The notes below the pieces were generated by a model. The model was not told the origin of the DNA. It saw nothing but the letters and a program-made list of their open reading frames with translations, and made no database searches. Of a DNA stretch of 58,317 bases, positions 7,356 through 53,762 are shown in pieces. Both the position numbers and the translations under genes were made by a program. This stretch comes from a virus (Duplodnaviria > Caudoviricetes): positions 1 through 58,317 of the IMG/VR virus record IMGVR_UViG_3300050139_000117; one strand, written 5' to 3'. Numbering within the stretch: position 1 is the stretch's first letter; each line of letters starts with the position of its first letter.

Positions 7356-7387
7356 AATGGGTTGATATTAATACTCACGTTATTTTG

Positions 7388-7478
7388 TGGGGAAGGCTGG
7401 ATTCGAACCAACGACCCATCGATTTGGGTGAACTAAATCACTTAAAGCCAACTGCTCTACCCTCTGAGCTACCTCCTC
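7388..7478 (-). tRNA. tRNA-like gene with 18 extra nt in the anticodon loop (TTA anticodon if removed at 37/38)
   Basis: GAGGAGG/CTTCCCC acceptor, GCTC/GAGC D stem, GTTGG-TTCGAAT-CCAGC T arm, 25-nt anticodon loop. Confidence 0.6.
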
Positions 7479-7557
7479 TTTTTATCTCGTAGTTTTTAAG
7501 GCTCAGTCGATTACATTTCTGCTCGACCCAAGTAACCGTGATTAGTACAAACCTTTG

Positions 7558-7754
7558 TGGGGTCTGATGGTTTCGACCCACCAATATTTATCAGTTATAT
7601 CTTCTAGTTTATTTCCATCGTTACGTTTACGATTTATTTCTACTTTAACTTTTAACCTATCGTATTATCCAATATTATTTTGTATACAAATATTAATCGA
7701 ATAATCAGAAACAGATTACAAGTCTGTTGCGTTTACCAATTTCGCCAAGACCCC
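7558..7754 (-). tRNA. tRNA(TGT, Thr anticodon)-like gene with a roughly 130-nt variable region
   Basis: Perfect GGGGTCT/AGACCCC acceptor, ACAGA CT-TGT-AA TCTGT anticodon arm, GGTGG-GTCGAAA-CCATC T arm. Confidence 0.65.
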
Positions 7755-7757
7755 ATG

Positions 7758-7830
7758 TGGTACGGGCTGGAATCGAACCAGCGACACATAGATTTTCAGT
7801 CTATTGCTCTACCAACTGAGCTACCGCACC
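7758..7830 (-). tRNA. tRNA-Phe(GAA)
   Basis: Canonical cloverleaf, ATAGA CT-GAA-AA TCTAT. Confidence 0.95.
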
Positions 7831-7929
7831 ATTCGTAATGATTAGTCATATCTTAAGCATTTGAAGATATTGTTTTTCTTTCCTATCAACTTGCGTTGTG
7901 CTTCTAAATACTAACCATTACTTGTTGGC

Positions 7930-8277
7930 TTATCGGTGTATTTCTCCGAATGTTTCAAAGGTGTGAAAACTTACATCACCTTGCCAAATTATTCTAGTAA
8001 ACAAGTTCATCTCATATTGATGCAGACATACATCCAAGAGAAGTTACGGCCTCCGTACAACATGTTTTTTAGGGCCGAGAGTCTATCCTCGTTTTACCAA
8101 CCCATATACATGCCACTGGGAACGTATGATGTTCGTGCTATTGCTAGCTTTGCCTACCTCACCACCAGTACACGATTAAACGTCTACCTTCATGATTACC
8201 ATACTATCGCTATTCGAATTACCGATAAATCGCTACCTTAGGACCATTATTTGTTTTTAGATTGCTGTAACGAACCT
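7930..8277 (-). ncRNA. Putative ~300-nt structured ncRNA plus a 5' hairpin with CAGCAATC loop
   Basis: TTATCGGT (7930-7937)/ACCGATAA (8221-8228) long-range complement; GC-richer; promoter at 8331-8338. Confidence 0.45.
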
Positions 8278-8531
8278 TTATTACTAAAATATTTTTAAAT
8301 TCCTATATGTCAAAAAACGTTTTACTTCTGCAAAGGTACTAACAAATACTTGAAGTGTCAAGTAAAATTAGAAATTATTTTTAATCTAAATAAACACCCA
8401 TGTACTTTATACAAAAATTATCAAACCACATACCAACTTCATAATATAAATCAGCTATTTCAGCATGCTTGGTATTCTCCAATCCACTGATGATTGAATT
8501 CGCAATTGATTGAAGAATCCTTACTTTCATA

Positions 8532-12200: not shown

Positions 12201-12215
12201 GTTATTATTTATTAG

Positions 12216-12327
12216 TAGCGGCACCAGGAATCGAACCTAGGTTTATGGCTTGAAATGCTATTGATTGCTGAACGTAATCTTGACAGATTAACTTTTTTTC
12301 ATCGTGCTACCACTACACTATACCGCT
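12216..12327 (-). tRNA. tRNA(TTC, Glu anticodon) with a 41-nt insertion between positions 29 and 30
   Basis: Removing 12259..12299 gives ATGGC AT-TTC-AA GCCAT and a 71-nt cloverleaf. Confidence 0.65.
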
Positions 12328-12334
12328 AATTTTG

Positions 12335-12443
12335 CGGTCTTGGATGGATTCGAACCATCAACCACCTCCGTGCGTGGAGGCATTCATACCTACTCAAGTG
12401 TTTTACACTTGGCAACCTTTCGGCTGTTCTGAACTACAAGACC
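12335..12443 (-). tRNA. tRNA-Asp-like gene with two hairpins in the D-loop and a 6-nt anticodon loop
   Basis: GGTCTTG/CAAGACC acceptor, G73, CCTCC-ACGCAC-GGAGG, GATGG-TTCGAAT-CCATC. Confidence 0.55.
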
Positions 12444-12446
12444 AAG

Positions 12447-12521
12447 TGGAGAATATCGGATTCGAACCTGTGACCCTCTGCTTGTAAGGCAGATGCTCTA
12501 AACCAACTGAGCTATATTCCC
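12447..12521 (-). tRNA. tRNA-Val(TAC), imperfect T stem
   Basis: TCTGC CT-TAC-AA GCAGA; GCTC/GAGC D stem. Confidence 0.85.
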
Positions 12522-12531
12522 ATCTATGAGA

Positions 12532-12867
12532 TTAAATAATCTTATCCCATCTTAATTTACCATCAGCAATTGCTTTACGAATGTAACGCATTAGCGTGAT
12601 TGTTTTATATGAATTTTCAAATCTAGTTTCACCAACATCTGTTGATAACTTAATTATCTGAATCTCATCTTCACCTTCATTTTCTGGTGACATGTAATCT
12701 GTTTCAACAATTGCTATTGGAAATTCATATTTGTATTTCTCAACCACACCAGCTTCAAAAGTATAAAATAAATTACCTTCTTTATAGTGTGAAAATTTTG
12801 CTTCACCAGACTTAACCATTTCTGGTAAGGTATGTGGTATTTGTATTTTTTCTATATTTGTTTCCAT
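12532..12867 (-). CDS. Hypothetical phage protein
   Basis: 111-aa ORF. Confidence 0.65.
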   Translation of the reverse strand: METNIEKIQIPHTLPEMVKSGEAKFSHYKEGNLFYTFEAGVVEKYKYEFPIAIVETDYMSPENEGEDEIQIIKLSTDVGETRFENSYKTITLMRYIRKAIADGKLRWDKII

Positions 12868-12873
12868 ATTAAT

Positions 12874-13206
12874 TTATTTTGGTCTTACCCCGTTAGCATA
12901 ATGTATTTCATCACGTCTATCAATTTCACTGAATGGACTGGTACCAATACCAATCATATCAATATTTTTGAAACCATTTTCTTCAGTAATGATTGTTTCA
13001 TCTGGTAATACACTTCCAGTAAACTTATCAAAACCTTTTTTGTTTTCAATCTTACCAGTTGAAGGATTAAAAGAACCCCAATCAGCTGGTCTACCATTAC
13101 CTTGTGGTTCGATAAAATAACTAACACCAGTTTTACTAGATGTTACTCTAAATCTTCCCGTTTCATCTCTGTCTTCAAAAAATTTTGCTCTAATCGTTGC
13201 TTCCAT
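12874..13206 (-). CDS. Hypothetical phage protein
   Basis: 110-aa ORF (TGRF.V.S..TG..YFIEP...WG motif). Confidence 0.65.
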   Translation of the reverse strand: MEATIRAKFFEDRDETGRFRVTSSKTGVSYFIEPQGNGRPADWGSFNPSTGKIENKKGFDKFTGSVLPDETIITEENGFKNIDMIGIGTSPFSEIDRRDEIHYANGVRPK

Positions 13207-13237
13207 TTGTTTTATTTTTAAAACACTTTTTATTTTG

Positions 13238-13308
13238 AGTCCCTAGATGGATTCGAACCACCGTAAAAGCTTTTGCAGAGCTTCACCTAGCCACTCGGTC
13301 ATAGGGAC
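13238..13308 (-). tRNA. tRNA-Cys(GCA)
   Basis: AAGCT CT-GCA-AA AGCTT; U73 discriminator. Confidence 0.92.
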
Positions 13309-13313
13309 ATATT

Positions 13314-13589
13314 TTATTCTTCTTTATATTTAATCACCGTCACAATTTCTTGGTCTGGTGGTAAATTGTTAATTAATCTTACTGAAACTGGTAATATGTA
13401 ATTATCATCACAATTCTTCCCTTCTTCACAACATTCCCACTCACCAGTTTCTTCATTCTTAACCATCCTTTTACAACCTTCATATAGTTGTGCGATGTTT
13501 CCTTTTACATGACCTTTCAAACCATCAAGTAAACCTAAAGAATCCCATTTACTAACGATTTCTTCTCGTTTTATTTTATCATTTTCCAT
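13314..13589 (-). CDS. Small protein resembling the N-terminus of gp23-type major capsid proteins
   Basis: KWDSLGLLDGLKGHVKGNIAQLYE. Confidence 0.5.
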   Translation of the reverse strand: MENDKIKREEIVSKWDSLGLLDGLKGHVKGNIAQLYEGCKRMVKNEETGEWECCEEGKNCDDNYILPVSVRLINNLPPDQEIVTVIKYKEE

Positions 13590-14260
13590 TCTTCAATCTT
13601 TTTTTTAAGTTCTTCTAATGTTATCGAAGATTTATCTTTCTTTTTACTATTATCATAATGTCTAACTAATTTACAATTAGCTGGGTGAGCAATTATTTTT
13701 GGGTCTATGTTATTTATATACCCTTCTTTGACTGAATACATATGGTCTCTACTAACACCACCTAAATTATCACCTCTATTTTTAGCCTTATACCATCCAT
13801 ATTTTTCAATAAGTTTAAAATCAAATTTGTTTGGATAATCGTTAAGACTAAACTTAAATTCACACAATTGTCTATATCTCACTAATCCAACAGCATTACT
13901 TTCACCATACTTACCATTTTTCCAAGCTAATGATAATCCTTCACTTTTACTTCTTGGGGTTAACTTATTATTTTTAACACCCCATTGTAATGCTACTGTT
14001 GTTAGTCCAAACTCTTTTCGTAAATCATTATATGATAACCCATCATTATATAATTTCTGAATCTCACCCCAATTATAATTTACATATTTAGTTTCACCTT
14101 TATTACCACCACTTATAAAAGGACTTTTATATCCTAATCTATGTAGTTTTCTAGTTACACTACCTTGTGATATTTTAAATACATCTGCAATTTGCCTAAA
14201 ATTATATCCTTCTTCTATTAACGATATCGCTTTATTAATATTTTCTTCTGTCCATTTCAT
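13571..14260 (-). CDS. HNH-type homing endonuclease with N-terminal HTH (start MKWTEE)
   Basis: SRDHMYSV...IIAHPANC...NSKK; the longer start runs through a tRNA. Confidence 0.75.
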   Translation of the reverse strand: MKWTEENINKAISLIEEGYNFRQIADVFKISQGSVTRKLHRLGYKSPFISGGNKGETKYVNYNWGEIQKLYNDGLSYNDLRKEFGLTTVALQWGVKNNKLTPRSKSEGLSLAWKNGKYGESNAVGLVRYRQLCEFKFSLNDYPNKFDFKLIEKYGWYKAKNRGDNLGGVSRDHMYSVKEGYINNIDPKIIAHPANCKLVRHYDNSKKKDKSSITLEELKKKIEEWKMIK

Positions 14261-14313
14261 ATACAATAAATATCTGAAACTTTTCAAAAAGTCAGAGATG
14301 TTTAAACCACTAG

Positions 14314-14383
14314 AGCTGGTGGTTGGAATCGAACCAACACTATTAGTTTTGCAGACTAATTGCTCTCCACGAACAACACCAGC
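14314..14383 (-). tRNA. tRNA-Cys(GCA), second copy with reduced D-loop
   Basis: GCTGGTG/CACCAGC, TTAGT CT-GCA-AA ACTAA, U73. Confidence 0.8.
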
Positions 14384-14440
14384 ATTTATCAAAGAACGTT
14401 TGGTTTTAAACCACTCACAACACGTGAACATATATAAAAC

Positions 14441-14508
14441 AAAAAAACCCATCTTTTGGATGGGCTACAGTTGTTTAAGTTATAATCTACTTAACAAACA
14501 TAGCCCAT
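14441..14508 (-). terminator. Attenuator terminator with overlapping antiterminator
   Basis: CCCATC-CAAAA-GATGGG-T7 terminator; ATGGGCTA in the leader (14501-14508) complements TAGCCCAT (14460-14467). Confidence 0.8.
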
Positions 14509-14565
14509 GCCGTCTACCACTAGTAAACACAATAAAAGGACTAATATGTTTGATAAATTTTTCAT
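14491..14565 (-). CDS. Leader peptide MKNLSNILVLLLCLLVVDGMGYVC
   Basis: 24-codon uORF between the promoter (14608-14615) and a terminator, upstream of Cys/Cys/Val tRNAs. Confidence 0.7.
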   Translation of the reverse strand: MKNLSNILVLLLCLLVVDGMGYVC

Positions 14566-14595
14566 TTCTTTTGTTTGTGGGTTTCCCCGTTTGTT

Positions 14596-14639
14596 AATAA
14601 ATATATGCAAAGGTACTAAAAGTTTTTGATATTGTCAAG
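14596..14639 (-). promoter_or_regulatory. Bacteroidota-type promoter (TACCTTTG) plus ATATTTAT motif
   Basis: Matches the TAnnTTTG -7 consensus; same motif recurs before many minus-strand genes. Confidence 0.7.
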
Positions 14640-46056: not shown

Positions 46057-46857
46057 TTATGCTTTATTTACGAAATTACTAACCGATTCAATCATTTTTT
46101 TGACATCTGAATGATATAAACCAACTGAGTTTAAACAACCACACTCTATTATGTAATAATCACCACCACATAATGCAATGTCCATAGCGAACATTTTATG
46201 GGGCATATATTCTATACATCTACTTTCCACAAATGTAATCATATCTTTTGGGATATCATTACCATCTTTCTTTAACCTAAAATTTTCACGATATAAACTA
46301 CTAGTAACAACTTTTCCATCCACTATATAGTTTCGCCATTCTTTATCTATTTTATATGGAGTGCTTACGATGATTTTTGTATCTTCAGTAAGAATAACAT
46401 TATCTGCTTTCATAGCACCATTGATAAAATTTTTCATCTCAGCAAATGTTCTAACATCCCCAACAAAACTTTTATCATCAGCATCTGGTCTAGTGAAAAA
46501 AAGTGTATCATCTGGATGATTCTCTTTTACAAAATCTCTAAATGTAGTTATTTTAGCTTCAGAATTAAGCATGTGATTTCCCCAAGCTTTAATATAGTTT
46601 TCAATTGAAAACTTTTCTTCATCAAAAAATAAACCCATGGGTTTATTTAATTGGTGATAAATATTATACATAAGTGTTGTTGCACCATAGTAAATGTTTA
46701 TCTTATCATCTTTGGTAAATTCTGGAATATCTGGAGAAAAAGGAATTACTTTAATACCTTCATATTCAATACCTAATTCTTCACAAGCTTTAGCCATTTT
46801 ATGAAAATCACCACCTTCAGCTGAAAGATTATTTTGTATTATCCAACGCACCATCAT
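46057..46857 (-). CDS. ATP-grasp protein (R2K/DUF4343-like)
   Basis: FTRP..DDKSF.G, EWRNYIVDGKVV..S.Y, MDIA, IIECGCLNSVGLY. Confidence 0.75.
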   Translation of the reverse strand: MMVRWIIQNNLSAEGGDFHKMAKACEELGIEYEGIKVIPFSPDIPEFTKDDKINIYYGATTLMYNIYHQLNKPMGLFFDEEKFSIENYIKAWGNHMLNSEAKITTFRDFVKENHPDDTLFFTRPDADDKSFVGDVRTFAEMKNFINGAMKADNVILTEDTKIIVSTPYKIDKEWRNYIVDGKVVTSSLYRENFRLKKDGNDIPKDMITFVESRCIEYMPHKMFAMDIALCGGDYYIIECGCLNSVGLYHSDVKKMIESVSNFVNKA

Positions 46858-47018
46858 AAGGTATTATTTTAAGGGTTTTATCAATGTAAATTTCATTGAA
46901 ATTCAATATTTCGGTAAAATGAAATATTTCTGTTTTTCTTTCAATCATATGAAAAAAAGAAATCTTAAAGAGCTTCCCCTCGTTCCACAGAATTTCTGCA
47001 TCAACAAGTCCCCACCCT

Positions 47019-47981
47019 TTAAGATTTAACTGTGGCTGATTGTTCATCTTTCTTTTTATATCTACTTACTTCCGTAACAATACCTTTCACAATAAAGTGT
47101 TTAACGTCTTGCCACTTCGTTATTTCATTGCTCATCTTTGGCATACCACCATCTGGATTAACAGCTAGTGTAATATGTGGGATAGCATTTTTTGATTTGT
47201 ATCCTTCTACTTTAAAAGCCATAGCCATATCAGATAGACCAACATGTGTTACCGTAAGAGTAACCTCTTTACCAATATCTGACTTATCCTTAAGTGGACC
47301 AAGACAAATAGTCATATGGTCACAAAACTCTTTACCTTCTCGACCCATAATCCAATTCTTTGGTGGGTCCATATTGTAATTAATTGGGGTAAGCAACTTG
47401 TTCAAAGATGCTCGGTCCAACATAACAGCTGAGTATAAGATTGGAGAGATTTTAAACATGTCTTTAGCTTCAAGTATTTTTTTAAGTGTTAATTCACCAA
47501 CTGACTTATGAGATTGTATCATTGCTTCAATCTTATCCAATGGTACACCGTGTGTGTTTCTAGCAGACAATGCTTCCGCATCCAATCCACCAGTGCCAAC
47601 ATCAACAATTTGGATGTTAGCATCATCATATCCCATATTCAAAGCTTCAACAACAAACTTTTTAGGTTCGTTTGCCTTGATATTTGTGTTGTCGATAATG
47701 ATTGGTGATATACCAGCCTTCATTGACTTCTTTGCGTTTTTAAAGTTTGTGTCATGAGCCTTATGCAATGCAGAGTAATCCTTAGATTCAATCATTGCAG
47801 TAAAAAATGCTCGGTAGTCACCTATTGATTCAATAACAGCATCAGTAGAGTGGATGATACCATCACCAACAAGAGACTTGGCTTTTGTTGACTTGCCAGA
47901 GCCTGGTATTCCACGCATTATGATTAATTCTTGGTTTGGTTTTGTAACCACTTTACCTAATATGTTCAACTTTTCATTCAT
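47019..47981 (-). CDS. Polynucleotide kinase (P-loop) fused to 2H cyclic phosphodiesterase
   Basis: MRGIPGSGKST, IIDNTN, RNTHGVP; HMTI and HITL motifs. Confidence 0.85.
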   Translation of the reverse strand: MNEKLNILGKVVTKPNQELIIMRGIPGSGKSTKAKSLVGDGIIHSTDAVIESIGDYRAFFTAMIESKDYSALHKAHDTNFKNAKKSMKAGISPIIIDNTNIKANEPKKFVVEALNMGYDDANIQIVDVGTGGLDAEALSARNTHGVPLDKIEAMIQSHKSVGELTLKKILEAKDMFKISPILYSAVMLDRASLNKLLTPINYNMDPPKNWIMGREGKEFCDHMTICLGPLKDKSDIGKEVTLTVTHVGLSDMAMAFKVEGYKSKNAIPHITLAVNPDGGMPKMSNEITKWQDVKHFIVKGIVTEVSRYKKKDEQSATVKS

Positions 47982-48017
47982 AAAGCAAAGGTACGAATTA
48001 AATCTGAGATTACCAAA

Positions 48018-48572
48018 TTATTGTTGAACTTTTATGATTGTTGGATTGTAAATTATATAGTGAGTTACATCATTATATTCTTTAGGGATACAAAGACCAT
48101 CAATTCCCATTTTAACCATGTTTCTAACATAATCAACTGGTTCATTTTTGTAAAAATCATACCAAATTTGTTGAGCAACGTCTTTTTCAGTGTCATTATA
48201 ATCTAATGCACTGTCTACGAACACATTAACACCTTTTTTAGGATTTTCATCGTAATTTTGGGCATGCATTTCCCATTCTGGGGCCATCATGGTCATTTTG
48301 GTAACCAGAGGACGTAATTTTTTTGGATTGGTTGGTGTTTTGTCTAAAAGAAGTCTTGGAGTGATGGTTGCAGTATATACAAACTCACCATAACCATTTG
48401 CTTCTTCTTTTGATGATGTAAAGTAAATTCCAGGCCCCTCTTGGTCCACAGCCTCTTTCCCACCAACGAAATCATCAGTAAATTTAGCGATTTGTGTTGG
48501 TGAACCGTGATAAACTGTAATTGAACCACCTTTAAGTGCTTCATTAAGTCTTTGTTTTATAAGCTGTTTCAT
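48018..48572 (-). CDS. ART-fold-like protein, possibly virion-packaged
   Basis: VYHGS...GPGIYFTSS..EA..Y...GIDG; MKQLIKQRLNE start. Confidence 0.55.
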   Translation of the reverse strand: MKQLIKQRLNEALKGGSITVYHGSPTQIAKFTDDFVGGKEAVDQEGPGIYFTSSKEEANGYGEFVYTATITPRLLLDKTPTNPKKLRPLVTKMTMMAPEWEMHAQNYDENPKKGVNVFVDSALDYNDTEKDVAQQIWYDFYKNEPVDYVRNMVKMGIDGLCIPKEYNDVTHYIIYNPTIIKVQQ

Positions 48573-48615
48573 ACTTATAAATATTGATTATCTGACTAAA
48601 AGTTTAGTCTATTTG

Positions 48616-48699
48616 CGGAGAGCAGAGAAATCGAATCCCATACCTTTCGGTACCCTTTGTTTAGCAAACAAGGACGGCAACCATACCGCATTACTCTCC
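48616..48699 (-). tRNA. tRNA-Ser(GCT)
   Basis: TT-GCT-AA loop, long variable arm TACC-GAAA-GGTA, G73. Confidence 0.8.
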
Positions 48700-48703
48700 A
48701 TTG

Positions 48704-48774
48704 TAGTCCCAATAGGATTCGAACCTATATTAATTGCTTAGAAGGCAATTGTCCTTCCCTTGAACGATGGAACC
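48704..48774 (-). tRNA. tRNA-Arg(TCT), canonical
   Basis: ATTGC CT-TCT-AA GCAAT. Confidence 0.9.
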
Positions 48775-48780
48775 ATTTAG

Positions 48781-48860
48781 AACCGACAATGGGATTCGAA
48801 CCCACATTTGCACATCCAGTTACGATTATCTGCTTAGAAGGCAAACTCGTGTATATCGGC
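48781..48860 (-). tRNA. Rewired tRNA-Arg(TCT): no D-arm at normal position, D-loop-like AACTGGAT 3' of anticodon arm
   Basis: GCCGATA TAC ACGA G TTTGC CTTCTAA GCAGA TAA TCGT AACTGGAT GTG CAAAT then T arm. Confidence 0.7.
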
Positions 48861-48898
48861 ATTTGTACGGTTACGTCTGAAACGTTCCCGACTTTCAG

Positions 48899-48971
48899 TA
48901 GTCCCACCCAGATTCGAACTGAGCCCTTAGATTTAGGAAATCCAAATTCTATCCTAATAAACTATAGAACC
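48899..48971 (-). tRNA. tRNA-Arg(CCT)
   Basis: TGGAT TT-CCT-AA ATCTA. Confidence 0.82.
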
Positions 48972-48976
48972 ATTTG

Positions 48977-49050
48977 TACACTCAGTAAGATTCGAACTTA
49001 CAGCCTTTCGCTTCGTAGGCGAATGCTCTATCCAGTTGAGCTATGAGTGC
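48977..49050 (-). tRNA. tRNA-Arg(ACG)
   Basis: TTCGC CT-ACG-AA GCGAA; D-loop AACTGGATA. Confidence 0.92.
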
Positions 49051-49056
49051 ATGTTG

Positions 49057-49135
49057 AACACCTAGAGGGATTCGAACCCCCGATTTCAGTTCCGCTACCC
49101 TTATTGATTTCGAAGACCAATGGGACTATAGGTGC
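49057..49135 (-). tRNA. Rewired tRNA-Arg(TCG)
   Basis: GCACCTA TAGT CCC A TTGGT CTTCGAA ATCAA TAA GGG TAGCGGA ACTG AAATC then T arm. Confidence 0.7.
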
Positions 49136-49144
49136 ATTTGTTTG

Positions 49145-49221
49145 TCCCGACAGTCAGAATCGAACTGACATGTGACCAATTACACTTTCAACGCCTTATG
49201 AGAGCGAGGTGATATGTCGGG
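49145..49221 (-). tRNA. Rewired tRNA(CAT), Met or lysidine-Ile
   Basis: CCCGACA TAT CAC C TCGCT CTCATAA GGCGT TGAAA GTG TAATTGGT CACAT then T arm. Confidence 0.65.
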
Positions 49222-49225
49222 ATTG

Positions 49226-49313
49226 CGGATGGTACAGGATTCGAACCTGTGATGGAACTTACGTTCACCAGATTAACAGTCTGGACTTTTCGACCAACTA
49301 AAGCAAACCATCC
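49226..49313 (-). tRNA. tRNA-Asn(GTT) with long variable arm
   Basis: CCAGA CT-GTT-AA TCTGG; V-arm GAAC-GTAA-GTTC. Confidence 0.8.
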
Positions 49314-49397
49314 GTATTTTTTTTTAATTCTTCATGTATTTCAATATGACAATTTGCACATACTGATGTCTAACAAACAACCGTTTTACCATTATTA

Positions 49398-49580
49398 CTA
49401 CTTATCCTTATATTCTTTAAATTCGTTTTCTTTTAATTCTGTTAGTTCTTCAATACTATGTGAATACGTTATGTATGTTGGACCATTATTTATTGTTCGT
49501 TTATATTCATAAGTATAAACAGGTCCATTTGAAGATTCAATTATAGTTTTATTTATCCCTAATCTATGTACTACTATCAT
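49398..49580 (-). CDS. Small hypothetical protein in the tRNA array
   Basis: 60-aa ORF with a short internal repeat (NGP.Y). Confidence 0.4.
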   Translation of the reverse strand: MIVVHRLGINKTIIESSNGPVYTYEYKRTINNGPTYITYSHSIEELTELKENEFKEYKDK

Positions 49581-49596
49581 ATTTTTATTTTTATTG

Positions 49597-49669
49597 CGGA
49601 TAGTGTAGGAATCGAACCTACCACCCTCGGCTTAACAAACCGCAGCTACACCTTGTCAGCTTACTATCC
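49597..49669 (-). tRNA. tRNA-Asn(GTT)
   Basis: TT-GTT-AA loop, GGATAGT/ACTATCC, G73. Confidence 0.82.
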
Positions 49670-49676
49670 AATTTTG

Positions 49677-49756
49677 TAGGGACGATGGGACTTGAACCCA
49701 CATTTTCAACGACCATTACGGTTATACAAGGTATAAGCTTGCATCGGTACGTCCCC
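49677..49756 (-). tRNA. Rewired tRNA-Ile(TAT)
   Basis: GGGGACG TAC CGA TGCAAG CTTATAC CTTGTA TAA CCG TAATGGTC GTTG AAAAT then T arm. Confidence 0.65.
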
Positions 49757-49846
49757 ATTTAAGTATTCTACTTTCAGAGTTGTCTCATAGGTGGGTAGTT
49801 AACCGTTAGGTCATCATGTTGCCAAGAGTTTCTTATTCATAAAATA

Positions 49847-50500
49847 CTATATTTTTATTCTTCCTTGAATCCATCCTTTATTTATCCATGAATCAAGGTC
49901 TTCTTTCTTAATCTTTTTATTTACTCCTTCTTTAGTTATCCAACAAGTACCGAATTGTGAATTTTTATCTCCATCATGTTTACCTTTATGTGATTCACTC
50001 ATTAATTGTTTTGAATCACTAGTATGTTTCTTATCTGTCCAACTTTTATTACCTTTAGAGTTACTACTCATTTTATTAGAGTATTCAGTTGACCAGTTAT
50101 CATCATTATTAAATAACCATTTTTTCCTATTTTTAATCTTCACTTTATTTTCAACAAACATTGTTACTGCTTTTTCTAAAAATTTTCTACGATGTTCTTC
50201 ACCACTAAATCCTCCTTCTCCTCCAAGTTGTAAATTCATACAAAGCTCTTCATTAATCAATTCTTTAGTAACTAATTCTTTTTCTCTATTCTTCAACGCT
50301 TCTCTTGTTGGTAACCATTCAAGTATTTCTTTAATATGATTCGCTTTACCATGATAATTGATACTAAACCAAAGCCTTTTACCACTTCCAAAATAACCAT
50401 CATTCAAATTATCAGTTGAATGCATTCCGATGTAATATCTATTTGTTACTTTACAAGTAATCTTATAGATGTAATTAAATTTCTTTTCTTGTCTTGCCAT
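49847..50500 (-). CDS. GIY-YIG homing endonuclease (paralog of 4661..5314)
   Basis: YIYKIT...YYIGMHST...YFGSG...NSQFGTCWITK. Confidence 0.85.
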   Translation of the reverse strand: MARQEKKFNYIYKITCKVTNRYYIGMHSTDNLNDGYFGSGKRLWFSINYHGKANHIKEILEWLPTREALKNREKELVTKELINEELCMNLQLGGEGGFSGEEHRRKFLEKAVTMFVENKVKIKNRKKWLFNNDDNWSTEYSNKMSSNSKGNKSWTDKKHTSDSKQLMSESHKGKHDGDKNSQFGTCWITKEGVNKKIKKEDLDSWINKGWIQGRIKI

Positions 50501-50537
50501 ATATTATAAATATGTAGCAAGTACAGAAAGTTCAAGG

Positions 50538-50620
50538 TTGTGACGGTGAGAATCGAACTCACTTTGTAGTTGCCTACCCACGGTATCAGCGTGGTACCTA
50601 AACCATCCAGCCCCGTCACA
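50538..50620 (-). tRNA. tRNA-Ile(GAT) with long variable arm
   Basis: CCACG CT-GAT-AC CGTGG; V-arm GTAG-GCAA-CTAC. Confidence 0.78.
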
Positions 50621-50625
50621 ATATG

Positions 50626-50697
50626 TTGGCTCACTCAGACTCGAACTGAGAATACATCGGTATCAGCGATGCGTGATAACCATTTCACCATGTGCCA
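50626..50697 (-). tRNA. tRNA-Ile(GAT)
   Basis: CATCG CT-GAT-AC CGATG. Confidence 0.85.
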
Positions 50698-50709
50698 ATT
50701 TGTGGAATT

Positions 50710-50931
50710 TTATTTCCACTGATTTTTTCTGTTATATTTCCAAGTACGATATTTTCTTACTTCGTACATTTGTAAATATTTATTTGGATTTTTATATCCT
50801 CTTCTATATGTTGGATGGAAGCTAGTTCCTTCATCCCAATATCTAGGGTATAATTCAGACAGCCAAATTCTGTTGTGTTGATTATTACTAATCGCTTTGT
50901 TGAGCTTCGCTCTGTTTCTGTTGATACTCAT
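50710..50931 (-). CDS. Small basic protein in the tRNA array
   Basis: Arg/Lys/Trp-rich, ends RTWKYNRKNQWK. Confidence 0.55.
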   Translation of the reverse strand: MSINRNRAKLNKAISNNQHNRIWLSELYPRYWDEGTSFHPTYRRGYKNPNKYLQMYEVRKYRTWKYNRKNQWK

Positions 50932-51001
50932 TTTCTTTGAGTCTATTGTTTAGTAGACCTCAAAGCATGTCAAATAACTTTTTCATTTGTTTTTGTTTTA
51001 G

Positions 51002-51097
51002 CTCTCAAAGATGGGTTCGAACCACTTTATACCAAACGAATGTTTCACGCTTCTAATTAGTAAGTCTTGCAAGACCTCAAACTAATTTGCTTTGAGA
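51002..51097 (-). ncRNA. tRNA-like RNA with 8-bp acceptor-like stem and no recognisable anticodon loop
   Basis: TCTCAAAG/CTTTGAGA, GTGG-TTCGAAC-CCAT, long hairpin in D position. Confidence 0.5.
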
Positions 51098-51103
51098 ATT
51101 TTG

Positions 51104-51191
51104 GGTGTCAGACGAGACTCGAACTCGCAAGGAACTTTCGTTCTTCTGGCTCACAACCAGACTCGATAACCATTTACGGACTACAGACACC
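51104..51191 (-). tRNA. tRNA-His(GTG) with long variable arm
   Basis: G-1/C73; TCTGG TT-GTG-AG CCAGA; V-arm GAAC-GAAA-GTTC. Confidence 0.75.
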
Positions 51192-51201
51192 ATATAATTT
51201 G

Positions 51202-51276
51202 GGCGACCTACGGGGCTCGAACCCGTGACCCTCAGAACCACAATCTGATGCTCTAACCAACTGAGCTAAGGTCGCC
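51202..51276 (-). tRNA. tRNA-His(GTG)
   Basis: G-1/C73; TCAGA TT-GTG-GT TCTGA. Confidence 0.92.
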
Positions 51277-51340
51277 ATATTATTCTCCGCAAATTTGCGG
51301 AGAATGTTTTATTTTATCTCCGCATATTTTGCGGAGATTG

Positions 51341-51425
51341 AGGAAGAGGTGGGATTCGAACCCACGGACCTGTTACGGCCTCCAGTTTTCAAGACTGGTG
51401 CAATAGACCACTCTGCCACCCTTCC
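51341..51425 (-). tRNA. tRNA-Ser(TGA)
   Basis: CCAGT CT-TGA-AA ACTGG; long V-arm. Confidence 0.9.
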
Positions 51426-51460
51426 AATTGGGGTACGTAACGTGTACCATTCGAAATTTG

Positions 51461-51557
51461 CGGAGAGAGAGGGATTCGAACCCACACACCCTATTTCTAG
51501 GAGCCCTCGATTTTCAAGACCGCTGCCGCTACCCAGATTCTTTCGGCTTATCTCTCC
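51461..51557 (-). tRNA. tRNA-Ser(TGA) with enlarged D-loop
   Basis: GGAGAGA/TCTCTCC, CT-TGA-AA, long V-arm, G73. Confidence 0.8.
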
Positions 51558-51561
51558 AAAT

Positions 51562-51651
51562 ATCGCAGTACAGGATTCGAACCTGTGGTCCCCAGAACGG
51601 GGACATCCTCTTTCATTGGAGGATTGCTTTAAGCCACTCAGCCAACTGCTT
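51562..51651 (-). tRNA. Ser-like tRNA with enlarged anticodon loop and frayed acceptor (pseudo or atypical)
   Basis: ATCCTC-CAATGAAA-GAGGAT; V-arm GTCCCC/GGGGAC; intact T arm. Confidence 0.55.
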
Positions 51652-51654
51652 CTG

Positions 51655-51754
51655 CACGTACAGTAGGATTCGAACCCACATAGAGACTTAATTCCAAAGA
51701 ATACTTGCTCTCGGTTTTGGAGACCGTTGCCTATAACCATTCGGCCATGTACGT
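51655..51754 (-). tRNA. tRNA-Trp(CCA) with very long variable arm
   Basis: ACGTACA/TGTACGT, CT-CCA-AA, about 30-nt V region, G73. Confidence 0.75.
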
Positions 51755-51760
51755 ATATTG

Positions 51761-51831
51761 CACGAGTGGAGAGATTCGAACTCCCGTCAATGGTTTTGGA
51801 GACCACGATTCTACCGCTGAACTACACTCGT
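51761..51831 (-). tRNA. tRNA-Trp(CCA)
   Basis: GTGGT CT-CCA-AA ACCAT. Confidence 0.92.
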
Positions 51832-51846
51832 ATGATAATCAATATG

Positions 51847-52017
51847 TCAAAGTACTACGTAGATAAACACTCTACCATGTTCTCGGATGAATTTTATTTC
51901 ACCCTCACAGCCAGCATCAAGTGCTCGTTTCTTGTATTTTTCATACAAGTTATCGAAGTCTGCATTCAAAACCTTGGTTTTTTCAACTCCTAGTTTTTTT
52001 AATCTTTCTTCTGGCAT
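51847..52017 (-). CDS. 56-aa hypothetical protein, first gene after the attenuator (not in ORF track)
   Basis: MPEERLKKLGVEKTKVLNADFDNLYEKYKKRALDAGCEGEIKFIREHGRVFIYVVL. Confidence 0.55.
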   Translation of the reverse strand: MPEERLKKLGVEKTKVLNADFDNLYEKYKKRALDAGCEGEIKFIREHGRVFIYVVL

Positions 52018-52028
52018 AGTCAATAAAT

Positions 52029-52123
52029 AAAAAACCCGACTTAGATTTCTCCGAGTCGGGTCTGAATGTTATTTGTTATTATGATTAAAAATCATCGTAA
52101 AAATTAACAGCCATAGCCGACTC
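52029..52123 (-). terminator. Attenuator terminator with competing antiterminator
   Basis: ACCCGACTC/AAGTCGGGT stem then T-tract; GAGTCGG in the leader (52117-52123) complements CCGACTC. Confidence 0.85.
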
Positions 52124-52186
52124 AAACTGGTGACTATTACGTCTCCAATTGCTAATCGATATTATATGCATGTTAATTGTTCTCAT
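52085..52186 (-). CDS. Leader peptide MRTINMHIISISNWRRNSHQFESAMAVNFYDDF
   Basis: 33-codon uORF between promoter (52223-52230) and terminator; codons match the downstream tRNA set. Confidence 0.8.
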   Translation of the reverse strand: MRTINMHIISISNWRRNSHQFESAMAVNFYDDF

Positions 52187-52192
52187 TTTATT

Positions 52193-52326
52193 ATAAATAT
52201 ACTGTTATTGTTAAAAGTTATACAAAGGTACTAACTATTTTTGTAAAAAGCAAGTTTTTTTGTAATTATTTTCAAATTATTTTATTTCTTAAGTGCAAAG
52301 GTACGAATAATACTTGAATTCACCAA
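52193..52326 (-). promoter_or_regulatory. Two Bacteroidota-type promoters plus ATATTTAT motif driving leader and tRNA array
   Basis: TACCTTTG at 52223-52230 and 52296-52303; ATATTTAT at 52193-52200. Confidence 0.7.
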
Positions 52327-52328
52327 AT

Positions 52329-52793
52329 TTATTTTACAAATTTTTCAGCTGTTACCCAAACACTTGGTGTTAAACAAACCAAATCTCTACGTCTTAACCA
52401 ACTTTCTAAATTTTTAAGACTTTTTAATTGTTGTCCCCAGATATAGTCAAAACCCATTGATTTAGGATAATCTTTTAATTTGTTACCCCATCCTTGTCCT
52501 TGAATTGATTTATCCACTGCAAGTAATACACCTTCAATACCTTTTAATCCTTTATATTCGCTCATAGTTGCAAACTCATATGTTGGTTTTATTGAATCGA
52601 TTTGTTTATCACCGAATAAATATAATCCATTTAATTCTTCACCATCTACAAGCATAATAGATAAATTCCAATTGGTTTCTTGAGCAATGATTGCGAAAAA
52701 ATAATCTTTATCTGTTACATGTTTAAAATATTCAAAAGCCCATGTAGTTACAGCAAGTCTTCTATGTTCTGGTATACCTTGTTTAATCTTCAT
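52329..52793 (-). CDS. GNAT-like acetyltransferase
   Basis: LAVDKSIQGQGWGNKL acetyl-CoA-binding motif. Confidence 0.6.
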   Translation of the reverse strand: MKIKQGIPEHRRLAVTTWAFEYFKHVTDKDYFFAIIAQETNWNLSIMLVDGEELNGLYLFGDKQIDSIKPTYEFATMSEYKGLKGIEGVLLAVDKSIQGQGWGNKLKDYPKSMGFDYIWGQQLKSLKNLESWLRRRDLVCLTPSVWVTAEKFVK

Positions 52794-53358
52794 CTCTAGT
52801 TATACCAGTATAAAAATCTTGTGTAATATTATTTGGAATATATCTCAAATCTATTTCACCTGTTTGTGAATTAACAAGTGGTCTTTTATTTGGGATTATT
52901 TCAAAAAATTGATACTGCCTAATTTTCCAAATGGAATCCAATTCTTTTTCAGTGTATGAAATATGACCTTGCCATGGGTCCAACACTTTAAATGTATCTG
53001 GATAAATAAAATTAACATTTTCTACTATTATCCAATGTGGGACACCTTTGGTTATTGTTCTAAGTATTGGTATATTTCCATCCGCAATAATTTGTCTAAG
53101 CAATTCATAAGGTCTTGGACTACACATATGTTCAACATAATTAAGATTCAAGGTTTTCATTCCTTTAATCATTCTTTCTGGTGGTGTACCAACTTCCCAA
53201 TCGGTTCCACACATTTCAGCAATGTCTTTTATTGTATATTTAACAGGAACTGTGAAGGGTAAATCATTTGGCCAATTAACTACAGCTTCAAATGCCATGT
53301 ATAAACATGTTGGGCCGCAACTATTTCCTGTTGGTTGATGACGTAAGTTAATTTTCAT
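52783..53358 (-). CDS. C39-like cysteine peptidase
   Basis: Q...SCGPTCL...HWIIV...DPW. Confidence 0.8.
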   Translation of the reverse strand: MKINLRHQPTGNSCGPTCLYMAFEAVVNWPNDLPFTVPVKYTIKDIAEMCGTDWEVGTPPERMIKGMKTLNLNYVEHMCSPRPYELLRQIIADGNIPILRTITKGVPHWIIVENVNFIYPDTFKVLDPWQGHISYTEKELDSIWKIRQYQFFEIIPNKRPLVNSQTGEIDLRYIPNNITQDFYTGITRDED

Positions 53359-53360
53359 TT

Positions 53361-53762
53361 CTAATCATCATCGAAGTCATCATCGTATTTACGACCCTTT
53401 CTTCTATCGTTGTAATCTCTATCTTCGTAGTCTTCTTCATCTTCCAATTCATCATCAATATCATCTTCATCAAGTATTGAATCTAGATATTCTTCAGTTA
53501 CAAACGTTCCAAATTCATTTTCAAAAACTTTCTTTAAACACTTGTATTCTTCGTTTGAAATTTCTTTAAAATCTACTCTGGTTAAAAGGTCTTCACCACT
53601 TTCAAATCTAATTTTTTCTTCACCTACATGATAGGTAAAATCCCAATTGATACTAGCTGCTAACTCTTCGTATCGCTCCATTTCTTTGTCGGTCATGGTA
53701 ACGAACCCCTTTATTTCAATATCGTTTAAGATATCACTAAACGTTGCTAGATATTTTGCCAT
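53361..53762 (-). CDS. Acidic hypothetical protein
   Basis: D/E-rich tail. Confidence 0.6.
   Translation of the reverse strand: MAKYLATFSDILNDIEIKGFVTMTDKEMERYEELAASINWDFTYHVGEEKIRFESGEDLLTRVDFKEISNEEYKCLKKVFENEFGTFVTEEYLDSILDEDDIDDELEDEEDYEDRDYNDRRKGRKYDDDFDDD

Follow-up and report, generated by a model that had tools for sequence, protein, structure and literature searches.

A large phage carries, in front of one of its tRNA gene clusters, a 33-codon uORF and a switchable intrinsic terminator, and the arrangement is probably a ribosome-mediated (leader-peptide) transcription attenuator controlling the tRNA array. The uORF is spelled largely with codons that are read by the tRNAs encoded downstream. 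This suggests that the phage makes these tRNAs only when ribosomes run short of them, although the translation of the leader, stall-dependent read-through, the direction of regulation and the physiological trigger are inferred from sequence. The window analysed was a whole stretch of 58,317 nucleotides (IMG/VR record IMGVR_UViG_3300050139_000117; Caudoviricetes). The interpretation is strongly supported by comparison, because about 60 related viral contigs carry the same module, the antiterminator strand covaries with very different terminators, and other tRNA arrays in this phage and in four relatives have their own leaders, rich in codons read by their own arrays. The earlier note, which had described a promoter, the uORF, a terminator and a tRNA array with the geometry of trp/his-type attenuation, was confirmed in its observation and supported in its interpretation. 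No description of this arrangement was found in the literature searched.

Anatomy of the leader and the tRNA array

All coordinates are on the minus strand. The promoter (52223..52253) is composed of TTG at 52253..52251 and TACCTTTG at 52230..52223, which fits the likely Bacteroidota-type -7 box, TAnnTTTG. The 9-mer GTACCTTTG occurs 12 times in the window, all on the minus strand, against 0.57 expected, and 0 of 100 shuffles reached 12. A second copy lies at 52304..52296. The same motif sits upstream of the leader in relatives. The uORF at 52186..52085 encodes 33 codons plus TAA, MRTINMHIISISNWRRNSHQFESAMAVNFYDDF, with an ATG and an A-rich upstream region. Its codons 2-19 (52183..52130), which the earlier note had listed correctly, are the proposed sensor segment. 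The terminator hairpin spans 52060..52035 (–13.9 kcal/mol) and is followed by a T-run at 52034..52029. The complementarity GAGTCGG:CCGACTC between the uORF and the 5' arm of the terminator is present. It extends to 10 bp, UUUGAGUCGG:CCGACUCGGA, between codons 21-24 (52117..52126) and 52059..52050, with two G-U pairs and a duplex energy of –14.9 kcal/mol. Within the uORF, an apical hairpin GGAGAC..GUCACC (52129..52146) tops a long hairpin in which codons 3-12 pair with codons 20-29. The apical hairpin was present in the MFE of all 17 distinct leader sequences and the apical helix was kept by RNAalifold. It is a possible pause hairpin, but this role is inferred. The window leader folds with z = –4.5.

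Downstream of the terminator there is a conserved small ORF of 56 aa (51847..52017), whose function is unknown. Its homologs were found in 78 loci. It gave no Pfam or PHROG hit, and its predicted model had a pLDDT of 84 with no clear PDB fold match. The ORF also occurs without tRNAs or a leader. The tRNA array follows at 48615..51831. The called tRNAs are Trp, Ser(tga), His x2, Ile(gat) x2, Asn x2, Arg(acg), Arg(cct), Arg(tct) and Ser(gct), plus about 5-6 non-canonical tRNA-likes. A GIY-YIG homing endonuclease gene and two small ORFs are interspersed. The count of 20 tRNA or tRNA-like genes given in the earlier note was not reproduced exactly. ARAGORN with default settings called 13, and Rfam gave 17 tRNA-clan matches on the minus strand at E <= 0.0051. 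One more appeared at 49057-49135 with 37.1 bits, and one further candidate with a CAU loop at 49144-49221 was seen by eye only. No minus-strand terminator-like site was found inside the array apart from one within a tRNA.

The codon match was then evaluated. With the anticodons called by ARAGORN, 14 of the 18 sensor codons are matched, and ACA, ATG, ATA and ATA are unmatched. Addition of the D-arm-less tRNA-like with anticodon UAU at 49677-49756 (32.9 bits) gives 16 of 18. The 17 of 18 claimed in the earlier note needs the CAU element seen only by eye. For the window itself, only 14 of 18 codons are covered by confidently called tRNAs. Relatives with canonical CAT tRNAs reach 17 of 18. Array-readable codons make up 26.7% of 14,173 codons in 65 window ORFs, and the binomial P for at least 17 of 18 is 2.4e-9. 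Among 43,571 stop-free 18-codon windows in six frames, 14 reach 14 or more matches, and these are presumed to be the leader's own overlapping windows. In the last 14 codons of the uORF, 2 match, or 3, as the earlier note had it, if ATG is counted. The other tRNAs in the window (Glu, Phe, Val, Cys, suppressor) lie outside this array, and none of their codons occurs in leader codons 2-19.

The whole window was scanned on both strands for a uORF, a hairpin with T-run, and complementarity between the uORF and the terminator arm. Three hits were returned. Two of them stand directly upstream of tRNA clusters and one lies inside a gene. The second of these units, at 14440..14616, is an attenuator of the same design. 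It comprises the promoter GTACCTTTG (14616..14608), the uORF 14565..14491 (MKNLSNILVLLLCLLVVDGMGYVC), an antiterminator strand ATGGGCTA in codons 18-22 (duplex –16.0 kcal/mol), and a terminator at 14464..14448 plus T-run. Downstream follow tRNA-Cys x2, Val(tac) and two intron/long-arm tRNA-likes (14383..12215). However, this second leader matches its detected canonical tRNAs poorly, 4 of 23. Its homolog in the complete genome of a relative, G005, precedes Cys, Val x2 and Leu x5.

Conservation and covariation in related loci

A degenerate pattern for ISISNWRRNSH found 21 viral-contig stretches, of which twenty carry the whole uORF and one (L010) does not. Each of 17 distinct sequences has the uORF-internal hairpin and a terminator 23-35 nt after the stop codon. 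Compensatory changes occur in 6 of 8 terminator pairs in the alignment of these 17 sequences. The conservation pattern of the uORF is that of a translated ORF, and its changes are of the kind expected under selection for which tRNAs read it. A Ser codon-family switch AGC/AGT <-> TCG was seen at codon 12, and CGT/CGC/CGA, but never CGG, at codon 16. The other changes are ATT/ATA, CAC/CAT, ATG <-> ATA (M<->I) and R->N. All stay inside the array-readable set. An independent sample was obtained through the small ORF. Of 68 of its 78 loci with enough flank (10 were skipped), 40 have both leader and tRNAs, 1 has a leader only, 3 have tRNAs only and 24 have neither. Distant leaders keep the residue set but permute its order, as in MIANINNMINSINWRHNS.., MTNWNHISNHISRNS.. 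and MKTNNNIHNINISRNSW... Many loci are related, so counts of loci are not independent events.

The antiterminator covaries with the terminator. Examples are GAGTCGG:CCGACTC in the window and, among the related loci, GGTCAAGG:CCTTGACC in L004, GGGTCGG:CCGACCC in L025 and GAGACG:CGTCTC in L016. Cognate duplexes average –13.8 kcal/mol, and cross-class non-cognate duplexes are –4 to –9. Over 16 leaders with unrelated terminators, cognate duplexes average –12.9 and non-cognate ones –8.6, and 0 of 200,000 shuffles reach the cognate sum. In three relatives (L011, L022, L023), however, the antiterminator complement is weak, at 6 bp or with a mismatch or bulge.

The leader codons also covary with the array anticodons. 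Nineteen distinct leaders match their own arrays at a mean of 14.8 of 18 codons. The leader of locus L053 (R,Q,V,E,T,G,W,A,C,D) matches its own array at 13 of 18 and other arrays at a mean of 5.5. In G005, four arrays have four different leaders, and the genomes G004, G002, G001 and G003 add more, for example ERREERE ahead of Glu, Arg and RWSWRSSSSSS ahead of Ser, Trp, Arg. Twelve further leader/array pairs, with very different amino-acid sets, each match their own array. Over 14 pairs, the cognate match is 0.58 and the non-cognate match is 0.20, and 0 of 200,000 shuffles reach the observed sum. The own array ranks first in 8 of 14. In the 6 exceptions, the better-scoring arrays for win_1, win_2 and G002_b include a homologous array of another genome (G005_1 or G005_2). 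For G005_3 and G002_d they are the broad arrays of G001 or G005_1, and for G003 they are the G004_a and G001 arrays. The own array of the second leader of the window ranks 7th of 14. Not every tRNA cluster has a leader, and in G005 the Met/Pro/Met, the CUA-suppressor/Cys and the L106 clusters have none. The matches are 13/42 in codons 2-4, 152/233 from codon 5 to just before the antiterminator, where a stalled ribosome would leave the antiterminator free, and 36/128 from the antiterminator to the end. The unmatched ACA at codon 3 is thereby explained, since most leaders of all classes begin M-[R/K]-T or similar, whatever their array, and codons 2-4 match arrays only at background level.

Proposed mechanism and alternative explanations

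In the model, which we hold with good confidence, transcription starts at the TAnnTTTG-type promoter and a ribosome translates the leader while RNA polymerase proceeds towards the terminator. Codons about 5-19 are those decoded by the downstream tRNAs, Arg tct/acg, Ile, Met/Ile2, Asn, His, Ser tga/gct and Trp. If charged tRNA for any of these codons is short, the ribosome would linger in this segment, melt the leader hairpin (regions 1:2) and leave the strand in codons 21-24 (region 2) free to pair with the 5' arm of the terminator (region 3). The terminator could not form, and the small ORF and the tRNA array would be transcribed. When decoding is fast, the ribosome would run over region 2, or reach the stop codon so that 1:2 re-forms, and the 3:4 terminator would end transcription. 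Because the product of read-through is the very set of tRNAs being polled, the circuit would be a negative-feedback, demand-driven supply of decoding capacity. The design is modular. The trigger may be host tRNA depletion, anticodon nucleases or simple feedback. The proposals of the earlier note that host anticodon nucleases are the trigger and that stalling at any single codon is enough are not supported by any test here, and both remain inference.

Constraint folding is compatible with the model but not decisive. The 5' arm of the terminator is predicted to be held by upstream RNA while the ribosome A site is at codons 1-17, and to be released at codons 19-28, which is the end of the matched segment. 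At equilibrium, however, the full-length window leader keeps the terminator at 0.5-0.9 probability even with a ribosome placed in the sensor segment, and in 4 of 17 relatives the terminator is unaffected. The model therefore relies on co-transcriptional kinetics. In the truncated transcript the antiterminator is also predicted without any ribosome. The untranslated state may therefore be read-through rather than termination.

It is possible, but unlikely, that the element is a translation-coupled attenuator reporting general translation or amino-acid status (charging, stringent conditions, overall ribosome speed early in infection) rather than the abundance of the particular tRNAs encoded downstream. 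The codon match would then only ensure that the phage's own tRNAs speed up the leader. The same anatomy supports this reading, sequence alone cannot separate charged-tRNA level from tRNA abundance, and the leader polls 8-10 tRNA species at once, which makes it a broad probe. In contrast, the leaders are spelled for their own arrays instead of being a common generic leader, which a generic probe would not need. A different polarity or mechanism appears still less likely, whether stalling promotes termination (feed-forward) or the switch acts through Rho, RNase processing or a protein/tRNA-binding RNA of the T-box kind. The equilibrium folds do not settle the default state. However, the stop codon lies 23-35 nt upstream of the terminator in 16 of 16 leaders, and a terminating ribosome therefore cannot cover the terminator but can cover region 2 on its way. 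The matches also end where occlusion of region 2 begins. In a cmscan of 47500-53500 at E <= 1, no T-box or other Rfam cis-regulatory family matched with an E-value of 0.005 or better. The few cis-regulatory rows listed, with E-values from 0.0078 to 0.87, are far below their gathering scores, and the best non-tRNA hit was sX4 (E 1.1e-05, 39.2 bits against a gathering score of 70).

It is very doubtful that the uORFs encode small functional or nascent arrest peptides, with the hairpin and T-run simply ending a short transcript and the arrays transcribed from other promoters. The first 19 residues are almost invariant in the closest 20 loci, and a sigma-70-like site lies inside the array at 50973..50945. 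However, distant members keep composition but not order, and leaders of other arrays are unrelated in sequence yet match their own arrays. Moreover, the C-terminal tails vary in the way needed to keep RNA pairing with codons 3-9 and with the terminator arm, and the leader co-occurs with tRNAs, not with the neighbouring ORF. Finally, although codons 2-19 were chosen in the earlier note after looking and three of the 17 matched codons (ATG and two ATA) rest on non-canonical tRNA-likes, a by-product of composition or post-hoc choice was tested and rejected by the background comparison in the window and by the replicated match in independent leader/array classes.

Comparison with known systems

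The leader-peptide attenuators of amino-acid biosynthetic operons (trp, his, leu, thr, ilvGMEDA and pheA of Enterobacteria; PMC3082878, PMC11857589) typically have a short translated leader with regulatory codons, three alternative helices (1:2, 2:3 antiterminator and 3:4 terminator) and an intrinsic terminator before the regulated genes, with ribosome position deciding which helix forms. The multi-amino-acid leaders of thr and ilv appear to be the nearest precedent for polling several codons. In the phage element, the regulated genes are a 56-aa ORF of unknown function and tRNA genes instead of biosynthetic enzymes, so the sensed species would be the products themselves. Its leader polls 8-10 different tRNA species, including separate isoacceptors (AGA and CGY for Arg; TCG and AGY for Ser), rather than runs of one codon. 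There are several such leaders per phage genome, each ahead of its own array, and no Rfam leader family matches. T-box riboswitches also give transcription antitermination in response to the state of a specific tRNA by alternative terminator and antiterminator helices. A T-box, however, would normally bind uncharged tRNA directly through a specifier codon and the T-box sequence, without translation, and regulate aaRS or amino-acid genes.

Phage tRNAs are thought to compensate for codon-usage differences, or to replace host tRNAs lost to defence nucleases (PMC11555353, PMC11025619), which gives a reason to couple their synthesis to decoding demand. Those works concern what phage tRNAs do, not how their transcription is controlled, and PMC11025619 and PMC13015707 contain none of the words attenuat-, leader or terminator. 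The same scan of the phage T5 tRNA region (NC_005859) found no uORF-terminator-antiterminator unit ahead of the T5 tRNAs, and its only two hits are ends of ordinary genes. The T5 region, which also has promoters and stable RNAs, is likewise a large tRNA cluster interrupted by small ORFs and homing endonuclease genes.

Organisation of the leader region and the tRNA array

The window is estimated by CheckV to be 16% complete, so the phage is large. Its GC content is about 32% and nearly all of its genes lie on the minus strand. When the minus strand is read from 52304 to 48615, two copies of GTACCTTTG are found first, at 52304..52296 and 52231..52223. They are followed by a 33-codon ORF at 52186..52085, MRTINMHIISISNWRRNSHQFESAMAVNFYDDF, and, after 24 nt, by a hairpin at 52060..52035 with a T-run. 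A 56-codon ORF at 52017..51850 and a tRNA array come next. The word GTACCTTTG occurs 12 times in the window, always on the minus strand, against 0.57 expected. It contains TAnnTTTG, which appears to be the -7 box of Bacteroidota promoters. Therefore, it is very likely the early promoter motif of this phage, and the host is inferred to be probably a Bacteroidota bacterium. The motif ATATATTTAT downstream of the -7 box is not enriched in the window, with 1 match against 1.09 expected.

The leader folds well, with z = -4.5. A long hairpin lies inside the ORF and the terminator follows. The stretch UUUGAGUCGG in codons 21-24 can pair over 10 bp with CCGACUCGGA, which is the 5' arm and the first loop bases of the terminator. 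All of the coordinates and the codon list in the earlier note are right. Only its count of 20 tRNA or tRNA-like genes and its figure of 17 readable codons out of 18 depend on non-canonical tRNA-likes. The gene counts obtained are 13 by ARAGORN, 17-18 by Rfam, and one more by eye.

The non-canonical elements in the array (48615-51831, minus strand) are of two kinds. Long-variable-arm copies (85-100 nt) of Trp, His, Ile and Asn sit next to canonical copies with the same anticodon. There are also D-arm-less tRNA-likes at 49677-49756 with anticodon UAU, at 49057-49135 with anticodon UCG, and at 49144-49221 with a CAU loop seen by eye. Relatives (the loci L007, L016 and L018-L020) also carry long-arm His, Ile and Asn copies. 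These elements may be functional tRNAs, decoys for tRNA-targeting nucleases or decaying copies. A GIY-YIG homing endonuclease gene lies inside the array at 49847-50500 on the minus strand (PHROG 314, E = 2e-30).

Array-readable codons make up 26.7% of 14,173 codons in 65 ORFs of the window, which gives P = 2.4e-9 for at least 17 of 18. Among 43,571 stop-free 18-codon windows in six frames, 14 reach 14 or more matches, and these are presumably the overlapping windows of the leader itself. All 10 tRNA species are represented in the leader. Both strands were then scanned for a uORF of 15-45 codons, a hairpin with T-run 5-60 nt later, and complementarity between the 3' part of the uORF and the 5' arm of the terminator. 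Three hits were obtained in 58 kb. The first is this leader, the second is another leader at 14565..14491 directly upstream of tRNA-Cys, and the third lies inside a gene. Phage T5, the classical phage with a large tRNA region, shows no such unit by the same scan.

Conservation of the leader in related contigs

The flanking 154-aa protein led to one related contig (L004, 68% identity). It has the same promoter, a uORF MRTINIHMISISNWRRNSHHTGQGMFNDIIEW, a different terminator (GCCTTGA..TCAAGGC), the small ORF and a similar array. Interestingly, its uORF carries GGTCAAGG where the window has GAGTCGG, and this is complementary to the new terminator arm CCTTGACC. A degenerate pattern for ISISNWRRNSH found 21 stretches in viral contigs. 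Twenty of them carry the full module, and one (L010) is an unrelated ORF. Among 17 distinct sequences, the conserved N-terminal part shows Ser AGC/AGT<->TCG at codon 12, CGT/CGC/CGA at codon 16, ATT/ATA and CAC/CAT, as well as the replacements M<->I and R->N. These are changes of the kind expected of a translated ORF, and every variant stays within the set of codons that the array reads.

The C-terminal tails fall into classes (..SAMAVNFFDDF, ..GQGMFNDIIEW, ..SGMSNCEGGTEV), and their residual conservation is explained by RNA pairing. In every sequence the tail pairs back to codons 3-9 and forms the long hairpin between regions 1 and 2 (1:2). The segment at codons about 20-24 (region 2) matches the terminator arm of its own locus (region 3). 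Cognate region-2:region-3 duplexes average -13.8 kcal/mol, while leaders of one terminator class against arms of another give -4 to -9. RNAalifold on the 17-sequence alignment found compensatory changes in 6 terminator pairs. However, it recovered only the terminator and the apical hairpin and not the long 1:2 helix, because the tails are too diverged to align. Per-sequence folds and duplex matrices were used instead.

Since the first search fixed part of the peptide, a second search was carried out with the alignment of the small ORF, and 78 loci were found. Upstream of that ORF, loci with a tRNA array have a uORF built from the same residues, but the order differs in distant members, as in MIANINNMINSINWRHNSRS.., MTNWNHISNHISRNSITKE.., MKTNNNIHNINISRNSWITK.. 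and MKTGNIHMSSINIWRRNS.. Composition is conserved and sequence is not, which is what a codon sensor predicts and what a functional or arrest peptide does not. Of 68 loci with enough flanking sequence (10 were skipped), 40 have both an attenuator-like leader and at least 3 tRNAs downstream, 1 has the leader only, 3 have tRNAs only and 24 have neither. Therefore, the leader travels with the tRNAs and not with the small ORF, although the loci are related and these are not independent events. Small-ORF homologs that have no tRNAs nearby (L039-L044) are preceded, about 155-165 nt upstream, by a different conserved uORF (MNHEFHISFQPSHLLKFLE and variants).

The small ORF itself has no Pfam or PHROG family. 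Its AlphaFold model (pLDDT 84.1), with a predicted beta-alpha-alpha-beta-beta arrangement, has no PDB match at E <= 0.001. In the locus L022 the small ORF after the terminator looks interrupted by an insertion. Among deposited phages, blastn of 51700-52900 found only tRNA-level matches in 5 records. A tblastn search with the small ORF found one uncultured 635-kb phage, whose copy has neither tRNAs nor a leader nearby. No cultured relative was found by these searches.

Covariation of leader codons with array anticodons

In 19 distinct leaders with at least 8 anticodon species within 5 kb, the own-array match is 11-17 of 18, with a mean of 14.8. One locus (L053) comes from a complete 345-kb genome and has a different array, namely Trp, Arg, Ala, Val, Gly, Thr, Arg, Glu, Asp, Tyr, Gln, Cys. 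Its leader, MRQVVIETGIRFNWAQCEDIELGCVMYDTEYF, matches its own array at 13 of 18 codons and the other arrays at 2-7, and the other leaders match its array at 3-6. The generic scan over all loci, and over further stretches of four records, showed that this is general. The complete 368-kb genome G005 has four leader/array pairs. The leader MNTINIHMISISNWRRNSH.. precedes Ser, Trp, Asn, His, Ile, Met, Arg, Ser, and MKTLASLLVILLCSLVVNRVGYAC precedes Cys, Val x2, Leu x5. The leader MRTLTNIFDFAFTAAEEDYSWEGQLVS precedes Phe x2, Glu x3, Asp x2, Gln, Ala x2, and MTTSTTYQTQKQQPKGGKPYGLAGC.. precedes Gln, Lys, Pro, Gly, Tyr, Thr. Other records add ..YRWSWRSSSSSSKR.. before Ser x3, Trp x2, Arg x2; ..TYPVYTVAAPAMGDAGMGYAPDY.. 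before Ala, Pro, Asp, Tyr, Gly, Met; ..NIERREERE.. before Glu, Arg; ..KPTYKPSDAKAGTDCGY.. before Tyr, Pro, Asp, Gly, Ala, Cys, Lys; and ..SLFTLTQVFMVQLQTVF.. before Gln, Thr, Phe, Val, Leu. However, some tRNA clusters of G005 have no detectable leader. These are the Met/Pro/Met cluster, the CUA-suppressor/Cys/Cys cluster and the Leu/Phe cluster (stretches L104, L106 and L108), so control by attenuation is not universal.

Over 14 leader/array pairs, the fraction of codons 2-21 readable by the cognate array is 0.58, against 0.20 for non-cognate arrays, and 0 of 200,000 shuffles reach the observed sum. The own array ranks first in 8 of 14. Where it does not, the better-scoring arrays include a homologous array of another genome for the two leaders of the window and for G002_b, a pair of the record G002. 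For the pairs G005_3, G002_d and G003 they are the broad arrays of G001, G005_1 or G004_a. The tRNA calls by ARAGORN miss non-canonical genes, which lowers some matches. For example, the second leader of the window scores 4/23 with canonical tRNAs only. For 16 leaders with unrelated terminators, the cognate antiterminator duplex averages -12.9 kcal/mol against -8.6 for non-cognate duplexes, again with 0 of 200,000 shuffles. The stop codon lies 23-35 nt before the terminator in all 16.

The matches are concentrated where the model needs them. They amount to 13/42 in codons 2-4, 152/233 from codon 5 to the codon before the antiterminator strand, and 36/128 from there to the stop codon. Most leaders begin M-[R/K]-T or similar whatever their array. 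This explains, as a start-region feature, the single exception named in the earlier note, ACA at codon 3. The nascent transcript, ending before the 3' arm of the terminator, was folded with a 28-nt footprint forced single-stranded. The 5' arm of the terminator is predicted to be held by upstream RNA while the A site is at codons 1-17, and to be released at codons 19-28. This boundary coincides with the end of the matched segment. Equilibrium folding of the complete leader is less clear, because the terminator stays favoured in the window (0.5-0.9) and in four relatives. The switch would therefore have to be kinetic, as seems to be the case in the classical systems.

Proposed mechanism and genomic context

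The sequence evidence suggests the following mechanism. Slow decoding of any of the array-cognate codons would keep the ribosome in the sensor segment. The 1:2 hairpin would be opened, region 2 would pair with region 3, the terminator could not form, and the array would be transcribed. Once the tRNAs are plentiful, the ribosome would run through region 2 and the terminator would form. This is classical attenuation logic applied to tRNA genes, and it would give negative feedback on decoding capacity. The relevant shortage in nature could be codon-usage mismatch with the host, decay of host tRNAs in infection, or cleavage by defence nucleases.

The proposed element would work like the trp, his, thr and ilv leaders and shares their defining anatomy, although translation of its leader ORF is inferred. 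However, it lacks the regulated amino-acid genes common to the classical members, and it matches no Rfam leader family and no T-box. How phages control their tRNA genes is essentially unknown. No description of leader-peptide control of tRNA genes, in phages or in bacteria, was found in the literature searched, which left out most subscription journals and supplementary files, so that absence in print is not proven. PMC11025619 and PMC13015707 do not mention attenuation, leaders or terminators, and PMC2965389 does not mention tRNA genes or operons, Bacteroidetes or phages. If the mechanism holds, it extends attenuation from sensing an amino acid to make enzymes, to sensing decoding capacity to make the decoders. 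It would also give a natural readout of which tRNAs limit translation in an infected cell, which bears on why phages carry tRNAs, whether for codon compensation, because of host tRNA decay or for escape from anticodon nucleases. The many natural leader variants, with their different codon sets, would form a ready comparative series and a template for synthetic tRNA- or codon-specific sensors.

A broader reading is possible but remains doubtful. On this reading, these large phages carry a modular, programmable system of codon-demand sensors, in which every major tRNA array is autoregulated by its own leader peptide polling exactly the tRNA species that the array encodes. The system would exist to detect and repair holes made in the host tRNA pool during infection, whether by host anticodon nucleases or by phage-induced tRNA decay. 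The non-canonical tRNA-likes, which duplicate the anticodons of canonical neighbours, and the adjacent kinase/phosphoesterase gene would belong to the same tRNA-defence programme. The leaders could also be re-spelled at will to build sensors for any chosen tRNA. 

The genomic context is suggestive only. Three genes lie just downstream of the array on the minus strand (46057-48572). One is an ADP-ribosyltransferase of the ART-PolyVal family (48018-48572). The second (47019-47981) combines a P-loop kinase domain (AAA_33) with a 2H-like region that weakly matches the tRNA-ligase phosphodiesterase domain (E = 0.0014, below the Pfam cut-off), and is reminiscent of tRNA healing enzymes. The third is an ATP-grasp R2K protein (46057-46857). 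On the other side, the protein two genes upstream of the leader (52783-53358, minus strand) has a weak Peptidase_C39 match (E = 2e-4, just below the cut-off).

Other RNA features were also seen on the minus strand of the window. The window carries a suppressor tRNA with anticodon UUA at 7387-7478. Relatives (L004 at 1402-1473, and L012, L013, L025, L068, L074 and L080) carry CUA suppressors, which ARAGORN calls 'Pyl(cta)'. The ORFs in the window are open under table 11, so any stop-codon recoding would be partial or stage-specific. At about 7556-8300, a tRNA-like gene read by eye has a TGT (Thr) anticodon loop and an insertion of about 120 nt. Upstream of it and of tRNA-Phe lies a 450-nt non-coding stretch, also read by eye, that looks structured. 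Finally, two adjacent hairpins of the form TCTCCGCAAA..TGCGGAGA were seen by eye at 51281-51330, one of which was also listed as terminator-like on the plus strand. The word CTCCGCAAA, also seen by eye, recurs just 3' of several tRNAs, and this may be a processing signal.
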